Positions 44,167 to 55,181 of a stretch of 64,000 bases of DNA are shown here, piece by piece (the first letter of the stretch is position 1; every line of letters starts with the position of its first letter). Origin of the DNA: Patescibacteria group bacterium. Its GTDB lineage: Bacteria; Patescibacteriota; Patescibacteriia; Patescibacteriales; UBA12465. The DNA is taken from positions 16,626-80,625 of the forward strand of contig JAVEZP010000004.1 in assembly GCA_034002925.1 (NCBI GenBank). Reading direction: 5' to 3'. The notes under the pieces are model-generated. The model was not told the DNA's origin and made no database searches. It worked only from the letters and a program-made list of their open reading frames with translations. Both the position numbers and the translations under genes were made by a program.

Positions 44167-45309
44167 ATGAAAAATTTTATTGCTGGAAAATATAAAAAAC
44201 AGTTGAAAAATAAAGAATATGAATATCAAAGTTTCTCTCCCTTTTTTATAAATAGAGATTTTGATTGGCATGATAAAAGAATCGATGTTTTACTTGAGCA
44301 AGCTACAAGATTACTTGGCGAGCTTAATGCTTATTCGCATCTAGTGCCAGATGTTGATTTTTTTATTCAGATGAACGTTGTTAGAGAAGCAACTAAATCT
44401 AGTATGATCGAGGGTACTAGAACGGGGATTGATGAAGCAGTTTTACCAAGAGAGGAAATTGATCCAGAAAAAAGAGATGACTGGGAAGAGGTGCAGAATT
44501 ATATTCAAGCACTTAATTTTGCTATTGCCGAATTAAAAACATTACCTCTTAGCATGAGGTTGATTCGCGAAACTCACAAAAAGCTTTTGTCAGGAGTAAG
44601 AGGAGAACATAAAAATCCAGGAGAAGTAAGGCAAAGTCAAAATTGGATAGGAGGGTCATCTTTATCTGATGCTTTTTTTGTTCCGCCAAGTCACGAAGAA
44701 CTTCCTGAATTATTAACTGATATTGAAAAATTTTGGCACAACAAAAGTCTACATCTTCCGCTAATTATAAAAATGGGGATTATACATTATCAATTTGAAA
44801 CAATTCATCCATTTTTAGATGGTAATGGCAGGGTTGGTAGGCTTTTGATTGCTTTACAACTTGTGGAATCAAAAATTTTAACGGTACCCACTCTTTATCT
44901 GTCTGCTTTTTTTGAGAAAAATAGAAGCTCTTATTATGATTCATTAAGTATGGTAAGAAAAAATAATGATTTAGAACAATGGATTAAATTTTTCTTAAAT
45001 GGTGTGATTGATACGGCAAATGATGGTATCAATACATTTAAAAGTATTATAGATTTACGATTACAATATGAACAAAAGATTTTAAGCCTTGGTATCCGAG
45101 CAAAAAATGCTCAAAAATTAATATTACACATGTTTTCAAAGCCTATAATTAGCATAAAATCAGTAGAGCAGACTTTTGGTGTAAGTTTTAATAGTGCGAG
45201 TAGGTTAATAAACGACTTAAAAGAATTAAAAATATTGGATGAGCTTACCGGATACTCTCGAAATAGATTGTATGTTTTGAGGGATTATTTGAATTTGTTT
45301 CAAAAATAA
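44167..45309 (+). CDS. fic: Fic-family protein (class II, N-terminal inhibitory motif; C-terminal wHTH)
   Basis: Active-site motif [12 protein letters not shown], inhibitory-helix motif S-S-M-I-E-G ((S/T)xxxE(G/N)), and a C-terminal HTH-like [21 protein letters not shown]. Confidence 0.9.
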
Positions 45310-48499: not shown

Positions 48500-49111
48500 A
48501 TGTCAGACACAATCATTATTATTTTTCAAATTGTGATTCTTATTTTTGCTGCCGTGATTCATGAATATATGCATGGCTGGATGGCTGATCGTTTAGGCGA
48601 TCCAACGGCTAGATTAGCCGGACGTTTGAGTTTAAATCCCATAGTTCATTTAGAATGGTTTGGCTCTTTGCTTCTGCCGGGCTTAATGTTAATGTCGGGT
48701 ATGCCTTTTGCGATTGGCTGGGCTAAGCCAGTGCCATATAATCCTTTAAATTTAAAAGATCATCGTTGGGGTGAAGCGAAAGTGGCAGCAGCAGGTCCTT
48801 TAGCTAACTTTTTAGTAGCGGCTATATTTGGTTTATTGCTGAATTTCTTACCCAGCACTGCTTCAGTTTTTGCGGGTTTGTTGGCATTAATTATTTATAT
48901 TAATTTAATCTTAATGGTCTTCAATCTTATCCCTATTCCTCCTCTAGATGGTTCAAAAATTTTAGCTGCTTTTCTTTCTCCTAATGCTAAAGCACGTTAT
49001 TTAAGTTTGGAACGTTTTGGTTTTATTTTTGTTATTTTATTTGCCTGGTTAGCCTTTTCTTGGATTCTGCCTTTAGTTGATGCTTTATTCAGACTTTTAA
49101 CGGGTTTATAA
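48500..49111 (+). CDS. Site-2 protease family (M50) membrane metalloprotease
   Basis: HEYMHGWMA (HExxH) and NLIPIPPLDGSKI (NxxPxxxLDG), within a polytopic membrane protein. Confidence 0.8.
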   Translation: MSDTIIIIFQIVILIFAAVIHEYMHGWMADRLGDPTARLAGRLSLNPIVHLEWFGSLLLPGLMLMSGMPFAIGWAKPVPYNPLNLKDHRWGEAKVAAAGPLANFLVAAIFGLLLNFLPSTASVFAGLLALIIYINLILMVFNLIPIPPLDGSKILAAFLSPNAKARYLSLERFGFIFVILFAWLAFSWILPLVDALFRLLTGL

Positions 49112-49309: not shown

Positions 49310-49738
49310 ATGCCGACTATTAATCAATTAGTAAGAAAACCCCGTAAGCCAAAAAGTAAGCGTAGCACTTCTTTAGCTTTGCATACCAGTTTTGATTCTT
49401 TGCATCGCAAAAAGAAAGTGAGTGCGAAAGGAGCTCCTTTTAAGCAAGGTGTTTGTTTAAAGGTGACTACTACCACTCCTAAGAAGCCAAACTCCGCTTT
49501 ACGTAAGATTGCTCGTGTCCGTTTATCTAATGGCATGGAAGTCACTGCCTATATTCCTGGCATGGGTCACAATTTACAAGAGCACTCAATTGTTTTAGTT
49601 AAAGGTGGAAAAACGAAAGATTTGCCAGGTGTGCGTTATAAAGTTGTGCGTGGTGTTTATGATACGGCTGGAGTAGAGGCTCGTCGCCAAGGTCGTAGTT
49701 CTTATGGTGCAAAGAAGCCAAAAGCAGAAAAGAGTTAA
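49310..49738 (+). CDS. rpsL: 30S ribosomal protein S12
   Basis: [45 protein letters not shown]. Carries a ~15-aa insertion near the N-terminus. Confidence 0.95.
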
Positions 49739-49778: not shown

Positions 49779-49806
49779 GCGTATCAAATTATAGCTAGTG
49801 ATACGC
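49779..49806 (+). promoter_or_regulatory. Intercistronic rpsL-rpsG hairpin
   Basis: GCGTATC-(14-nt loop)-GATACGC, ending 12 nt before the rpsG ATG. Confidence 0.35.
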
Positions 49807-49818
49807 CCCAAAAGTCTT

Positions 49819-50298
49819 ATGAGAGGAAAACCAGCCCCAAAAAGAGAGTTAAGCGGGGACAGCAAATATAATGACCAAAACATCACAAAATTAATTAATT
49901 ATGTGATGAAGGAAGGTAAAAAAAGCGTGGCCGAACGAATTGTCTATGGCTCTTTTCATTTAATTAAAGAGAAGACCAAGCAAGATCCTCGTCATGTTTT
50001 TAATAAAGCCATGAAAAGGGTCTCTCCTTTAGTGGAAGTACGCGGTAAAAGAGTTGGTGGCGCAAACTATCAAGTGCCGTTTCAGGTACGTGGAGAACGT
50101 CGTTTTTATTTAGGTTGTCAATGGATTATTAACGCCGCTAAGGCTCGTCGTGGTCGCTCTATGGCCGAAAAAATGGCGGCTGAAATCTTAGATGCTTCTA
50201 ATGGTGAAGGTGCTTCTATTAAGAAGAGGGAAGCAGTTCATAAGATGGCTGAAGCTAATAAGGCTTTTGCTCACTTTTCTCGTTCTCGTTCTAAGTAA
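49819..50298 (+). CDS. rpsG: 30S ribosomal protein S7
   Basis: MRGKPAPKRELSGDSKYND... VEVRGKRVGGANYQVPFQV. The ATG at 49819 is preferred over the GTG at 49798. Confidence 0.93.
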   Translation: MRGKPAPKRELSGDSKYNDQNITKLINYVMKEGKKSVAERIVYGSFHLIKEKTKQDPRHVFNKAMKRVSPLVEVRGKRVGGANYQVPFQVRGERRFYLGCQWIINAAKARRGRSMAEKMAAEILDASNGEGASIKKREAVHKMAEANKAFAHFSRSRSK

Positions 50299-50381: not shown

Positions 50382-52463
50382 ATGCCTCGTGACTATTCCC
50401 TTGATAAAATTAGAAATATTGGCATCATGGCTCACATTGATGCTGGTAAAACCACTTTTACTGAGCGGGTTCTTTTTTATACCGGCAAAAAACATAAAAT
50501 TGGCGAAACTCATGAAGGTGCCGCTGATATGGATTGGATGGAACAAGAGAAGGAAAGAGGTATTACTATCACCTCAGCTGCTACTACTTGTTTTTGGAAA
50601 AATAATAAAATTAACATTATTGACACTCCTGGTCACGTTGATTTTACCGTTGAGGTAGAGCGTTCTTTGCGTGTTTTAGATGGGGCGATTGCTGTATTTG
50701 ATGGTCAAGCAGGAGTGGAGCCACAATCAGAAACAGTGTGGCGTCAAGCAGATAAATATAAAGTGCCACGTCTTTGTTTTATTAATAAAATGGATAAACT
50801 CGGAGCCGATTTTTATATGAGTTTAGATTCCATTAAACAACGTTTAAATTCCAGAGCGGTGGCTATTCAATTACCAATTGGAGCTGAAGATAATTTAAGC
50901 GGTGTAATTGATTTATTTGAAAAGAAGGCTTATCAATTTACTGGTAATTTTGGTGAAAATATTGTTGAAATTGAAATGCCAGCCGATATGCCAGAAAAGG
51001 TAGAAAAGTTTCGTTCTGAATTAGTAGAAAAAATTGTAGAGTGTGATGAGGCTACCATGGAAAAATATTTAGCTGGTGAAGAAATTAGTATTGCAGAGCT
51101 TAAGAAAGCTATGCGCAAGGGAGTTATTAATAATGAAATTTATCCTGTGCTTTGCGGTACGGCTTTGCAAAATATTGGCGTGCAGTTTGCTTTAGATGCT
51201 GTTAATGAATACTTACCATCACCTATTGATGTACCGGCTGTAGAGGCAAGTGATGTTAATGATGAAGAGAAAAAAACTCTTATTAAAGCGGATGATGATT
51301 CTCCTTTTGTTGGTTTAGCTTTTAAAATTGCAACCGATCCTTTTGTAGGCAAACTATGCTTTGTTCGTGTTTATCAAGGCGTCTTACAATCTGGTTCTTA
51401 TATCGTTAATAGTTCTACTGGTAATAAAGAGAGAGTTGGACGTTTAGTTCGTATGCACGCTAATCATCGTGAAGAAATTAAAGAAGTGTACGCAGGTGAT
51501 ATTGCTGCTATTATTGGTTTAAAAAATACCACCACTGGTAATACTTTGTGTGCAGAAAATAGTCAATTATTATTAGAGCCTATTACTTTCCCAGAGCCAG
51601 TGATTAAAATTGCAGTTGAACCAAAGACAAAGGCTGACCAAGAAAAAATGGGCGTTGCTTTAGCGCGTTTAGCTGAAGAGGATCCGACTTTTAGAGTAGA
51701 GACCGATGAAGAAACCAATCAAGTACTGATCTCTGGTATGGGTGAATTACATCTTGATATTATTGTTGATCGCATGAAGAGGGAATTTGGTGTTGAAGCT
51801 AACGTTGGCAATCCTCAAGTTTCTTATCGTGAAACCATTACCCAAACTGCTGAAGCGGAACATAAATATGCTAAGCAATCTGGTGGTCGTGGTCAATATG
51901 GTCATTGTTGCTTGCGGGTTGAACCAGCTGGTGAAGGCGGTGGTTATGCCTTCTTAGATGAAGTGAAAGGCGGTGTTATTCCTAAAGAGTTTATTCCTGC
52001 AATTGAAAAGGGCGTTAAAGAAGGAATGCAAAGTGGTGTAGTGGCTGGTTATCCAATGGTTGATGTGAAAATCGCTGTCTATCATGGTAGTTATCATGAA
52101 GTTGATTCCTCAGAAGTTGCCTTTAAAATGGCGGGTATTTTTGCTTTTAAAGAAGCTTGTCAAAAGGCTAAACCTATTTTATTAGAACCAGTGATGAAAG
52201 TAGAAGTAACTACTCCTGAAGAATACATGGGTAATGTGATTGGTGATTTAAATTCTAAACGTGGTCAGATTGAAGAAATGATTGATCGTCCTAATAAGAT
52301 TAAAGCGATTGAAGCTAAAGTACCCTTATCAGAAATGTTTGGCTATTCCACTGCTTTAAGATCAATGTCTCAAGGAAGAGCTAACTATGTAATGGAATTC
52401 CATCATTATAGTGAAGTGCCACGTAATATTTTAGAACAAATTAAAGAACGTAGTGGTAAATAG
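50382..52463 (+). CDS. fusA: Elongation factor G
   Basis: [28 protein letters not shown], and all five EF-G domains are recognisable. Confidence 0.97.
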
Positions 52464-52469
52464 AAATAT

Positions 52470-53087
52470 ATGAATTTTGAAAATTCTTTTTCTGAAAACA
52501 AAAAAAATATTTTAGAAAAAGAAGAAGAATTAAGTCCGGAGCAGGAATTAAGGGAAAAAGAAAAAGCGTTATTAGATTTTTGTGAAAAGAATAACAATCC
52601 AATTGTTATTTTAGAATCAGGCAAAGTAATAGATACAGATTTAAAGTTATCTAAATATTGGCAGAATTTACCCGATATTGATAAAGATATAGCAGAAATG
52701 TTATTAATTAGAGCAAATGAATTTTTAAATAGTCCTTTATTTACTGATAGTTTTCATGAAGATCACGGAAAAAGACGTTCTTGGGAAGATAAGTATGCAG
52801 AATCGCAGATGTCTCCAGATTTATTAGAATATTATGCTAGCAATCGCTTAAATCTTAACCGCTTAAGCTTGCCATTTTCTTTTAAGGCTTGGTTTGAAAC
52901 TTTAAATAAAAATGTTGTAGATAATTTGTCGGCAGTAACTTTAAATTCTTTGCAAAAAGAGTTAGATAAATTAACTGTGCAAGACTTACATAAATATGGT
53001 CTTGCTAGCGACCAAGAAAAAATTGAAATTGTGAGAAATTTTGAAAATATATTTAAGAAAATTGTAACTTTATTGAGTTCTGACTAA
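52470..53087 (+). CDS. Hypothetical protein (inside str operon)
   Basis: 205-aa ORF starting 6 nt after the fusA stop with ATATG context. Helical and acidic; no recognised domain. Confidence 0.5.
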   Translation: MNFENSFSENKKNILEKEEELSPEQELREKEKALLDFCEKNNNPIVILESGKVIDTDLKLSKYWQNLPDIDKDIAEMLLIRANEFLNSPLFTDSFHEDHGKRRSWEDKYAESQMSPDLLEYYASNRLNLNRLSLPFSFKAWFETLNKNVVDNLSAVTLNSLQKELDKLTVQDLHKYGLASDQEKIEIVRNFENIFKKIVTLLSSD

Positions 53088-53115
53088 TAGCCATAAGGGG
53101 GAAGGCTTCAAACAT

Positions 53116-53484
53116 ATGCGCAAGCAACTCAAAAAAGCTTTGAAATTAGCTAGAAAGACAAATGATGCCATTATCTTTTTTGATGCTGAAAATCCGGATG
53201 ATTCTTTCGCTATTATTGATCTTGATCGCTATGAAACTTTAGTTGAGCCTAGAGTTTTAGATGAGAAAAATAGAATATATCAAGCTAATTTGACAGAAGG
53301 AGATTTAACTGATAAAATTAATCGCGAAATCTCCGACTGGAAAAATACTGAACAGGCGGAATATTTGGCTGAAGAAAGCAAAGATAATCCACGATGGCAA
53401 ATTCCTCCTCATATTAAGAATAAAGCTGAAAAAGTAGAAGATGCATCAGTAACTGAAGATTTAAAAAATAAAGAAAATAAATAA
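53116..53484 (+). CDS. Hypothetical protein with Phd/YefM-like N-terminal pattern (tentative)
   Basis: 122-aa ORF. The N-terminal LKKALKLARKTNDAIIFFDAENPDDSFAIIDLDRYETLVE has the helix-strand-strand-(D/E)xYExL pattern of Phd/YefM-fold antitoxins. Acidic tail. Confidence 0.45.
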   Translation: MRKQLKKALKLARKTNDAIIFFDAENPDDSFAIIDLDRYETLVEPRVLDEKNRIYQANLTEGDLTDKINREISDWKNTEQAEYLAEESKDNPRWQIPPHIKNKAEKVEDASVTEDLKNKENK

Positions 53485-53514
53485 TTTTTATTTATAATTT
53501 AATTAATTAATTTC

Positions 53515-53562
53515 ACGGCTGGTTTCCTCTAATAGGAAAGAAACCCCTTTTTCGGGGGCCGT
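53515..53562 (+). promoter_or_regulatory. GC-rich nested-stem RNA element upstream of tuf
   Basis: Outer stem ACGGC/GCCGT encloses GGTTTCCT..AGGAAAgAAACC and the overlapping CCCC-tttttc-GGGG. Confidence 0.3.
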
Positions 53563-53574
53563 AAGCATAAAAAC

Positions 53575-54762
53575 ATGGCAGAAACATTTGAACGCACTAA
53601 GCCCCATGTTAACGTTGGTACTATTGGCCACGTTGACCATGGGAAAACTACTTTAACCGCCGCTATGTTAGCGGTATTCGGCGCTCAGGGCTTAAACGCT
53701 TCTAAAAAGGGTGTCGGAGAAATTGATGCTGCGCCTGAAGAAAAAGAGCGTGGTATCACTATTGCTACTGCTCACGTTGAATATGAGTCAGCAGCTCGTC
53801 ATTATGCACACGTTGATTGTCCGGGTCACGCTGATTATGTAAAAAACATGATCACTGGCGCTGCTCAGATGGACGGTGCTATTTTAGTAGTGTCCGCTAC
53901 TGATGGTCCTATGCCTCAGACTCGTGAACACATCTTATTGGCTCGTCAAGTTGGCGTACCTCACATTGTTGTTTTCTTAAACAAGTGTGATATGGTTGAG
54001 GACCAAGAATTAATTGACCTAGTAGAAGAAGAAGTTCGTGATCTTTTAAAGAAATATGAATTCCCTGGAGATACTACTCCAATTATTCGTGGTAGCGCTT
54101 TAAAGGCTTTAGAAAATCCAGCTGGCCCAGATGCAGCTCCAATTATGGAACTGATGAAACAGTTAGATGAATTTATTCCAGCTCCTGTTCGCGATATCGA
54201 TCATGAATTCTTAATGCCGATTGAAGACATCTTTTCTATTGAAGGTCGTGGCACCGTTGTTACCGGTCGTATTGAACGTGGTGTAATTAACGTTGGTGAT
54301 GAGGTAGAAATTGTTGGTTTAACCGAAACTAAGAAAACTACTATTACTGGCGTAGAAATGTTTAACAAATCTTTACAACGTGGTGAAGCTGGTGATAATG
54401 CTGGTTTATTATTACGTGGTACCAAAAAGAATGAAGTTGAACGCGGTCAAGTTTTATGTAAACCTGGCACCATTACTCCTCATACTGAATTTGAAGCTCA
54501 GATTTATGTTCTATCTAAAGATGAAGGTGGTCGTCATAAACCATTCTTTAAAGGTTATAAACCTCAGTTCTATATCCGCACAACTGATGTAACTGGTGAG
54601 GTAGAATTACCAGCTGGTACTGAAATGGTTATGCCTGGAGATACTGTTAACATTAATGTTAAATTAATTTCTCCAGTAGCTTTAGAAGAAAAGCAACGCT
54701 TTGCTATCCGCGAAGGTGGACGCACAGTGGGTGCTGGTACTGTAGTTAAAATTATCAAGTAA
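53575..54762 (+). CDS. tuf: Elongation factor Tu
   Basis: [31 protein letters not shown], and the full EF-Tu length. Confidence 0.98.
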
Positions 54763-54765
54763 GTT

Positions 54766-54815
54766 AACACTTTAGTCTGCTCTTATTTAAGGGCAGACTG
54801 CTAGTGTTTATTTAT
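54766..54815 (+). terminator. Long hairpin terminator/attenuator after tuf
   Basis: AACACT-tt-AGTCTGC-(12-nt loop)-GCAGACT-gct-AGTGTT followed by TATTTATT. Confidence 0.55.
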
Positions 54816-54842: not shown

Positions 54843-55181
54843 ATGTCCGAACCTAAGAAAGAAGAGAAGGATTACAAACAGAGAATCCGCATTAAGATCA
54901 AAGCTTTTGATCACAAGATTATTGATCAGTCCACTAAAACTATTGTGGATACGATTGAGCGTAGCGATGCTAGTTTTTTTGGTCCCATTCCATTACCGAC
55001 CGAAAAGAAAAAATATACCGTTAATCGTTCTACTTTCGTGCATAAAGATGCGCGTGATCAATATGAAATGCGCATTCATAAGCGTATTATTGATATTGTA
55101 GATCCAACTGCTACTACTATTGAAAACCTGACAAATTTAAATTTACCAGCAGGGGTTGACGTGGAAATAAAAATGCAGTAA
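54843..55181 (+). CDS. rpsJ: 30S ribosomal protein S10
   Basis: [24 protein letters not shown]...GPIPLPT...[19 protein letters not shown]. Confidence 0.95.

Follow-up and report, generated by a model that had tools for sequence, protein, structure and literature searches.

Between fusA and tuf, the str-operon genes for elongation factors EF-G and EF-Tu, a Patescibacteria group bacterium with a genome of 0.82 Mb carries two open reading frames (ORFs), here ORF1 and ORF2, which lie in a 64,000-nucleotide (nt) stretch of contig JAVEZP010000004.1 (herein referred to as the window). Judged by profile comparison and gene order, ORF2 is a member of a large, unnamed Patescibacteria family of acidic, YefM/Phd-like proteins without a toxin. 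What is new here is a predicted, near-consensus promoter that faces tuf from inside ORF2 and whose synonymous sites are frozen across the order to which the bacterium belongs. We favour an explanation in which a toxin-less YefM/Phd-like ORF2, the embedded tuf promoter, a structured RNA in the tuf leader and an antitoxin-like adaptor role for the protein belong together, and we give this explanation as a whole a probability of about 0.55. Coordinates of all features are collected in Table 1.

Among 41 related genomes, 38 have an ORF2 match (the other three are 88-95% complete), and when all 37 other matching loci of the order were fetched, a homologous ORF of 105-213 amino acids (aa) was present between fusA and tuf in 37/37. 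Synteny was anchored by tblastn with fusA in 97 fetched family loci and in 10 control loci without a match. Two loci (L054 and L056) have no tblastn match to the window's ORF2, yet the ORF in their slot aligns in A1, the profile alignment of the 37 order sequences. A wide profile search with these 37 sequences against 1.84 billion representatives returned 1510 clusters at E<=1e-3 (the best 150 clusters listed are 94-226 aa long), and in the class the same order profile has matches in 106 of 201 genomes. Forty of these class matches were fetched across different families (20 strong and 20 weak), and 39 of them precede tuf at a distance of 37-342 nt. With a class-wide profile (A6), matches were obtained in 15/16 other genomes of the class and, in a sample of the phylum, in 38 of 284 genomes from other classes; tuf follows downstream on the same strand at 17 of the 20 other-class matches that were fetched, and the remaining matches include one at a contig end and one unrelated fusion.

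The control loci show what the fusA-tuf junction looks like in genomes without an ORF2 match: fusA directly adjoins tuf in five of the ten, short divergent look-alikes occupy the slot in two, and an unrelated ORF precedes tuf in three, in one of which fusA is non-adjacent. It follows that the ORF2 family is lineage-specific rather than universal. The more distant the taxon, as far as other classes of the phylum, the lower is the identity to the window's ORF2, which fits vertical descent as far as identities, in place of a tree, can speak to it. No homologue was found in phages by tblastn, and the gene has apparently been inherited vertically. A literature search (article supplements not covered) found no account of the ORF2 family or of any Patescibacteria gene placed between fusA and tuf.

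The highest-scoring promoter-like site between positions 49000 and 55500 lies within this gene. It consists of a -35 hexamer TTGACA (53290-53295), a 17-nt spacer and an extended -10 element TGATAAAAT (53310-53318, with TAAAAT at 53313-53318 preceded by TG), and scores 11/12 plus the TG. Its bases are those of ORF2 codons L59-T60 and 65-68, within a conserved helix (LTExxLxDKINRxIxxWK) that forms the second part of the protein. The pattern TTGACA-(16 or 17)-TAnnnT with TG is present inside the ORF in 37/37 order homologues, and it falls on codons 59-68 in all 35 that align there. Across these 35 sequences the codons are frozen as Leu TTG (35/35), Thr ACA (35/35) and Asp GAT (35/35), and the residue before Asp, which itself varies, has a codon of the form NNT in 35/35, the source of the promoter's TG. 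Background codon use is very different from this (TTG for 25% of Leu, ACA for 13-44% of Thr, T at 33-37% of third positions), and the other invariant residues of ORF2 use at least two codons. Mean synonymous-codon identity reaches 0.76 over residues 59-73, compared with 0.51 over residues 1-45 and 0.43 over residues 90-105.

Homologues from the rest of the class separate the helix from the promoter. A promoter scoring at least 10/13 is present in the spacer between ORF2 and tuf at only 1/37 order loci, versus 23/39 loci in the rest of the class, where it is typically TTGCCA-16-TGnTATAAT and where the embedded promoter is found in 12/39. Eight class members keep the amino-acid helix with the hexamers destroyed, and seven of these eight have a strong spacer promoter. 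Because synonymous sites are frozen in the order and the helix persists in class members that lack the hexamers, the helix is under selection at both the protein and the DNA level; the codon comparison indicates that the selection on the promoter sites acts on DNA, independently of the encoded protein. The usual rule of promoter-to-start spacing places the transcription start shortly 3' of the -10 element, and by this rule transcription should begin near 53325 and give tuf a leader of about 250 nt. An AT-rich stretch, TTAATTAAT, just 5' of the leader RNA described below was considered as a candidate second promoter and scores at most 8/13. The original prediction that the two ORFs are co-expressed with the elongation factors needs qualifying to this extent, since tuf has its own predicted promoter inside ORF2. 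With this promoter in its coding sequence, ORF2 is physically locked to tuf. The overlap suffices as a cis-acting cause of the linkage, goes a long way towards explaining the fixed order of the genes, and explains why extra genes are inserted on the fusA side only; gene order taken by itself is thus no evidence for binding to EF-Tu or EF-G.

Further features of the DNA surround the promoter. An 8-bp perfect inverted repeat, GGAGATTT/AAATCTCC (53299-53306 and 53327-53334), lies on either side of the -10 element and predicted start; read by eye, it is not kept beyond the genus. An Rfam match to mir-2567 on the minus strand (53278-53354), which scores 35 bits where the gathering score is 79, was taken as chance, and the inverted repeat is probably its source. 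Just 3' of the -10 element, in the stretch 53320-53328, Arg70 is encoded by CGC in 22/34 order homologues and the string AATCGCGA recurs; Arg13 is mostly AGA. The CGC bias suggests selection on the GC-rich stretch around the start site.

The predicted leader would end, just before the tuf start, in a conserved RNA of three helices. Here P1 (ACGGC/GCCGU) encloses the hairpins P2 (UUUCCU/AGGAAA) and P3 (CCCC/GGGG). Conservation extends to the strands that join the helices, UGG (CUGG if the final P1 base is counted) and GAAA (GAAAC if the initial P3 base is counted), and the minimum-free-energy (MFE) fold is also the consensus fold. RNAalifold applied to 23 sequences gives 15 pairs, nine of them with compensatory changes; pairing is kept in 95% of cells, compared with 44-57% in slid controls, and the observed values were reached by 0/500 shuffles. 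The z-score of the fold is only -0.57, and its support comes from covariation, not from energy. A covariance model built from 23 of the 41 genomes, the window's included, finds a single significant copy in the bacterium's own genome (E 1.3e-16) and one copy each in 33/41 relatives, always just downstream of the ORF2 homologue; it also matches five of the 40 class-level loci (L075, L080, L081, L087 and L104) and four order loci outside the model. A reduced form, seen by eye, precedes tuf in a genome without ORF2 (L133), so the leader element is independent of ORF2. It may serve as a stabiliser, a processing site or a regulator. Rfam models do not match it, either in the window (E<=1) or in five related loci (E<=0.1), and no description of this tuf leader RNA was found in the literature searched, again without article supplements. 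Five loci from another lineage of the phylum (L120, L121, L123, L126 and L127) have in common a different conserved leader 100 nt upstream of tuf, which starts AAAAAGAGA(T/A)A..CCCT and has paired GC-rich arms. Structured tuf leaders appear to occur in several Patescibacteria groups.

Turning to the protein, the ORF2 family has four parts in both A1 and A6: an N-domain of about 45 residues, the helix that houses the promoter, an acidic linker of variable length and a set of C-terminal motifs. Within the N-domain Y39 is invariant and a KKTGD turn is conserved, and AlphaFold2 models it as helix 2-15, strands 19-21 and 31-33 and helix 36-43, with a predicted local distance difference test score (pLDDT) of 74-81 that falls to low values over the remainder. 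The acidic tail is variable and modelled at low confidence, and it carries short conserved motifs; the isoelectric point (pI) is 4.1-5.4 in 92/95 family proteins. One of these motifs, W-x-I-P-x3-K-x2-A, is present in 37/37 order proteins and 0/58 outside the order, with W94, I96 and K101 invariant in the order alignment, and by this distribution it is an order-specific short linear motif. Nine of the 37 order proteins (counted by eye) extend further, into a tail of the EEDRQYLEEIPF type, of which QYIEPIMF is one variant; elsewhere in the class the extreme C-terminus fits the strict pattern [FY][YF][LF]EP[ILV][ED] in 27/39, and some family members end in EEIPF or EEPVF. The tip has been lost in the window's genus. 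Codons at conserved positions of the N-domain and of the tail motif are free (Y39, TAT 24 and TAC 11; I96, ATT 15, ATA 10 and ATC 10; P97, at least three codons, with CCT 13, CCA 9 and CCG 7). Comparisons of this kind indicate selection at the protein level on the N-domain, on the W-x-I-P motif and on the C-terminal tip.

The original prediction quoted the N-terminal sequence of the 122-aa protein correctly and noted its resemblance to Phd/YefM antitoxins, and this likeness of the N-domain holds on weak but repeated profile evidence. At E<=1, PF02604 matches 18/37 and 39/57 family members (best E 1.7e-4 and 1.1e-7, respectively), and the only other family to recur is RelB-like, in eight members; when the whole genomes of the 41 relatives are scanned with PF02604, the str-operon gene is itself hit in nine, at model positions ~9-55. 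Aligned by hhalign with five canonical antitoxins taken from the relatives, the family scores a probability of 58.8% (E 9.4e-5, 38 columns). Beside four of those canonical antitoxins lies a small ORF where a toxin gene is usually found, two of these ORFs being ParE/RelE-family matches, and the fifth adjoins a 125-aa ORF. Searched against PDB sequences, the A6 profile has YefM proteins as all of its top five hits (E 0.05-0.19), and the A1 profile returns designed TIM barrels and importin only (E 0.02-0.05). In Foldseek, YefM chains hold the highest probabilities listed (0.72-0.77), with template-modelling (TM) scores, normalised by target, of 0.45-0.56. The ESM Atlas gives two rows named Phd/YefM, one found by features (score 0.90, no common Pfam) and the other by structure (PF02604 in 100% of members). 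The ORF2 profile also finds a 297-aa protein in an rml-type sugar-nucleotide operon (L131, 1754-2647, minus strand) that starts with a Phd/YefM-like segment; its remainder resembles, by eye, a nucleotidyltransferase of the glucose-1-phosphate thymidylyltransferase type, and similar frames occur in G244, G271, G295 and G318.

A toxin gene beside ORF2 is absent from 37/37 order loci, where the neighbours are fusA, or a variable gene such as ORF1, and tuf. Because the canonical first strand is missing, the hairpin is acidic and no toxin is adjacent, we call ORF2 YefM/Phd-like and not an antitoxin of a toxin-antitoxin pair; as read from the profiles and the neighbourhood, it is a protein of YefM/Phd ancestry without a toxin partner.

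These observations can be arranged in a single working scheme. ORF2 would be translated from str-operon read-through by way of its own ribosome-binding site, and tuf would be transcribed both from that read-through and from the embedded promoter. The protein would act like a domesticated antitoxin, its N-domain dimerising and its disordered acidic tail holding a conserved partner through the short motifs; ORF2 is thus pictured as probably a dimer with acidic, disordered tails that bear partner-binding motifs. Our favoured guess for the partner, which is unproven, is EF-Tu or another component of translation. We considered ORF2 as a replacement for bL12 or EF-Ts and rejected this idea, as both are present in the bacterium's own genome.

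Several results weigh against this scheme. The AlphaFold2 model of ORF2 has a mean pLDDT of 63 and a predicted TM score (pTM) of 0.29; the window's ORF2 has no Pfam match even at E<=10 and likewise none in NCBIfam; Foldseek returns no match at E<=0.001 (best 0.15), and none of the PDB matches is individually significant. The protein opens with a helix, and its PF02604 and hhalign matches begin only at model position ~9-11, beyond the canonical first beta strand. Its hairpin is acidic where the five canonical antitoxins have K/R, and the net charge of the N-domain averages -1.45. The position is not without exceptions: one class genome (L082) has its homologue elsewhere, after a two-component system, and one homologue at the phylum level (L119) follows fusA without tuf within 2.4 kb. 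The promoter was scored on the consensus of model bacteria. Finally, metatranscriptome contigs (four runs, small shares) cover the locus from 53387 onward only, a relative's 240-nt contig corresponding to 53387-53622 and another starting at 53514; contigs are absent over ORF1 and the first 270 nt of ORF2, and they indicate neither a start site nor missing expression.

Foremost among the alternatives, although we consider it unlikely, is that ORF2 is a DNA-binding repressor of the promoter within its own gene, by which str-operon output would set tuf transcription. The target promoter lies inside ORF2, the 8-bp inverted repeat flanks the -10 element in the window, helix 1 is basic with the conserved KKTGD(R), and characterised Phd/YefM antitoxins bind operators that overlap promoters. 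However, the acidic hairpin and the negative net charge make binding to operator DNA doubtful, the first strand is missing, and the repeat disappears outside the genus in a region so rich in AT that such repeats arise easily.

A second alternative, which we hold to be improbable, is that ORF2 has a function unrelated to translation and owes its place beside tuf purely to promoter overlap and to the lack of room for insertions between the two genes. An embedded or abutting promoter, together with the leader RNA, accounts completely for the linkage in cis, and insertions are confined to the fusA side. The gene found after a two-component system in one genome agrees with this alternative. What an unrelated function fails to explain is the origin and persistence of ORF2 at one site over such a range, and the tail motifs imply a conserved partner.

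We assign a low probability, lower than to either of these, to ORF2 being a working orphan antitoxin against a toxin encoded elsewhere or delivered by a host, phage or plasmid (of the Doc/Fic, YoeB or ParE/RelE type), placed beside tuf so that it is made along with the translation factors. A YefM/Phd-like N-domain followed by a disordered tail is the architecture of an antitoxin, and the bacterium's own genome has Fic proteins and one canonical Phd/YefM-ParE pair. Yet the candidate toxins are far rarer among the relatives than ORF2 (YoeB 2/41, ParE/RelE 12/41 and Fic 22/41, versus 38/41) and show no co-distribution with it, the fixed single-copy site and the distance-tracking identities are unlike those of mobile toxin-antitoxin genes, and phages yielded no homologue. 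The link to a Fic gene 8 kb upstream (44167-45309) that the original prediction found intriguing looks like coincidence: the protein is of the Fic_N+Fic type and not Doc, its gene lies between rpsI and prfB, a close orthologue in the same relative place exists in one relative only (G006), and the family is otherwise patchy and multi-copy. We therefore rejected it as the partner of ORF2, as Fic is found in only part of the relatives and mostly at other places. The canonical pair just mentioned, an 82-aa Phd/YefM-like antitoxin overlapping an 89-aa ParE-family toxin (L062, 917-1431, contig C17), is the genome's ordinary toxin-antitoxin pair and has no relation to the str operon.

The adaptor scheme could be carried one step further, to a re-used toxin-antitoxin circuit for EF-Tu homeostasis, in which a YefM-like dimer binds the embedded promoter and its tail motifs grip EF-Tu, or a different translational GTPase, where a toxin was once bound. 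We regard this as a long shot, behind all three alternatives above; if it were true, transcription of tuf would be tuned by free EF-Tu, in the way that toxins control their operons through conditional cooperativity. A protein-only variant may also be considered, in which a dimer with acidic tails like those of SSB or the ribosomal stalk tethers elongation factors.

Table 1. Features of the str-operon region in the window, with the basis of each assignment
Feature	Position	Strand	Basis
rpsL	49310-49738	+	ORF list
rpsG	49798-50298	+	ORF list
fusA (EF-G), 693 aa, upstream neighbour	50382-52463	+	ORF list
ORF1, 205 aa, genus-limited, fast-evolving, in variable slot	52470-53087	+	ORF list
Shine-Dalgarno-like AAGGGGGAAGG, ending 10 nt 5' of the ORF2 start	53095-53105	+	read from sequence
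ORF2, 122 aa, acidic YefM/Phd-like protein without toxin (predicted)	53116-53484	+	ORF list
ORF2 N-domain, YefM/Phd-like, residues 1-45 (helix, strand, acidic hairpin, strand, helix)	53116-53250	+	AlphaFold2, PF02604, hhalign
Embedded sigma-70-type promoter toward tuf (predicted)	53290-53318	+	promoter scan and codon comparison
W-x-I-P-x3-K-x2-A motif, ORF2 residues 94-104	53395-53427	+	order alignment
Structured RNA, tuf 5' leader	53515-53562	+	covariation, MFE fold
tuf (EF-Tu), 395 aa, downstream neighbour	53575-54762	+	ORF list
Terminator-like hairpin 3' of tuf, 12-pair stem	54773-54800	+	terminator scan
rpsJ	54843-55181	+	ORF list

The layout of the locus agrees with its first description: the two ORFs lie between fusA and tuf with gaps of 6 nt (fusA-ORF1), 28 nt (ORF1-ORF2) and 90 nt (ORF2-tuf), and their ATATG start contexts (ATATATG for ORF1, ACATATG for ORF2) and the lack of a terminator between fusA and the ORFs were confirmed in the sequence. 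The terminator scan finds no terminator-like site on the plus strand from the fusA stop to the ORF2 stop, the next one being the hairpin 3' of tuf. ORF1, which starts 6 nt 3' of the fusA stop, has no Shine-Dalgarno-like sequence. The tuf protein itself is 77-95% identical among relatives in the order. On the comparative evidence both ORF1 and ORF2 are genuine genes and more than chance frames.

The two genes differ in their reach. The expectation that both would recur between fusA and tuf in related genomes stood for ORF2, at the 37/37 order and 39/40 class loci given above, but not for ORF1, whose homologues (25-38% identity) are found in 7/41 genomes, all of the window's genus and always between fusA and ORF2. 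The ORF1 profile finds 13 clusters only among 5.8 billion proteins. In its alignment (A3), 18 columns are invariant (17 if the start Met is left aside), which include P89, F91, D93, H99, R102, R103, W105 and E106 and the stretch PxFTDxFxxxHxxRRxWE, and on this account ORF1 is taken to be a constrained protein. Searches of Pfam, NCBIfam and PHROGs give rows at chance level only, PADLOC gives none, and neither the ESM Atlas nor phage tblastn returned anything usable. A GNPIxIxxxGK stretch seen by eye raised the idea of ORF1 as a second Phd-like protein, which was rejected at an hhalign probability of 0.3% against A6 and A2.

In other lineages the slot occupied by ORF1 contains unrelated genes, among them a PIG-L/glucosamine isomerase fusion, DUF2283, a ClpX zinc-finger protein, Bro-N, Ham1, an ABC ATPase, a HicB-like protein, a RecQ-like helicase and prephenate dehydratase, so that ORF1 is best seen as one occupant of a variable slot. 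Across the class the fusA-ORF2 junction is an insertion hotspot that holds 0.7-2.7 kb of unrelated genes, including several ORFs without a family (L074, L081, L085, L088, L090, L091, L093, L096, L098-L101, L107 and L108). A reversed toxin-antitoxin pair, in which ORF1 would be the upstream toxin and ORF2 its antitoxin, is very improbable: the short gap, the constant adjacency of ORF1 to ORF2 and its fast evolution and patchiness within the genus, as often seen in accessory genes, would suit such a pair, but 31 of the 38 genomes with ORF2 lack ORF1, ORF1 has no detectable similarity to toxin or defence families, and the same slot elsewhere holds unrelated genes.

The genomes of Patescibacteria are very small and encode few regulators, and a large share of what they conserve is unannotated; a family of more than 1500 sequence clusters, seated in the most conserved operon of the cell, now has an anatomy. 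EF-Tu is among the most abundant bacterial proteins, and the embedded promoter and leader RNA offer a way into how Patescibacteria set the level of their main translation factor. The ORF2 stretch would be dual-coding, a conserved helix and the promoter of the EF-Tu gene at once. Two cautions follow from the locus: overlapping signals, and not interactions between the products, can lie behind a conserved gene order, and an amino-acid motif can be conserved through selection on the DNA.

Known systems resemble this arrangement in part. The C-terminal tip DDDIPF of SSB and the acidic tails of the archaeal and eukaryotic P-stalk are acidic-tail adaptors, and the ORF2 family is like them in layout only: a small domain for oligomerisation is followed by a flexible, acidic linker and, at the C-terminus, by a conserved tip of hydrophobic or aromatic character. 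The window's ORF2 has lost the tip. In Escherichia coli, tufA promoters lie inside the fusA coding region, which is likewise a case of a secondary tuf promoter within an upstream str-operon coding sequence. In the window, however, the predicted promoter is hosted not by fusA but by an inserted antitoxin-like gene, and it is near-consensus, has an extended -10 element and is frozen in 35/35 homologues. An overlap between the transcription signal of one unit and its neighbour can limit rearrangement and preserve gene order over the long term (Brandis, Cao and Hughes 2019, PMC6735719); the case described there is a terminator-promoter overlap at tufB-secE in enterobacteria, whereas the window has a putative promoter overprinted on coding sequence. 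With the YefM/Phd family (PF02604), finally, ORF2 shares the helix-strand-hairpin-strand-(D/E)xYExL core, the small size and a folded N-domain ahead of a disordered C-terminal half. Canonical members, unlike ORF2, have the first strand, a basic hairpin and an adjacent toxin, and ORF2, unlike them, has a long acidic tail with conserved motifs of its own and is a single-copy gene at a fixed site that tracks taxonomy: it is an antitoxin-like domain in a toxin-less, housekeeping and dual-coding setting.

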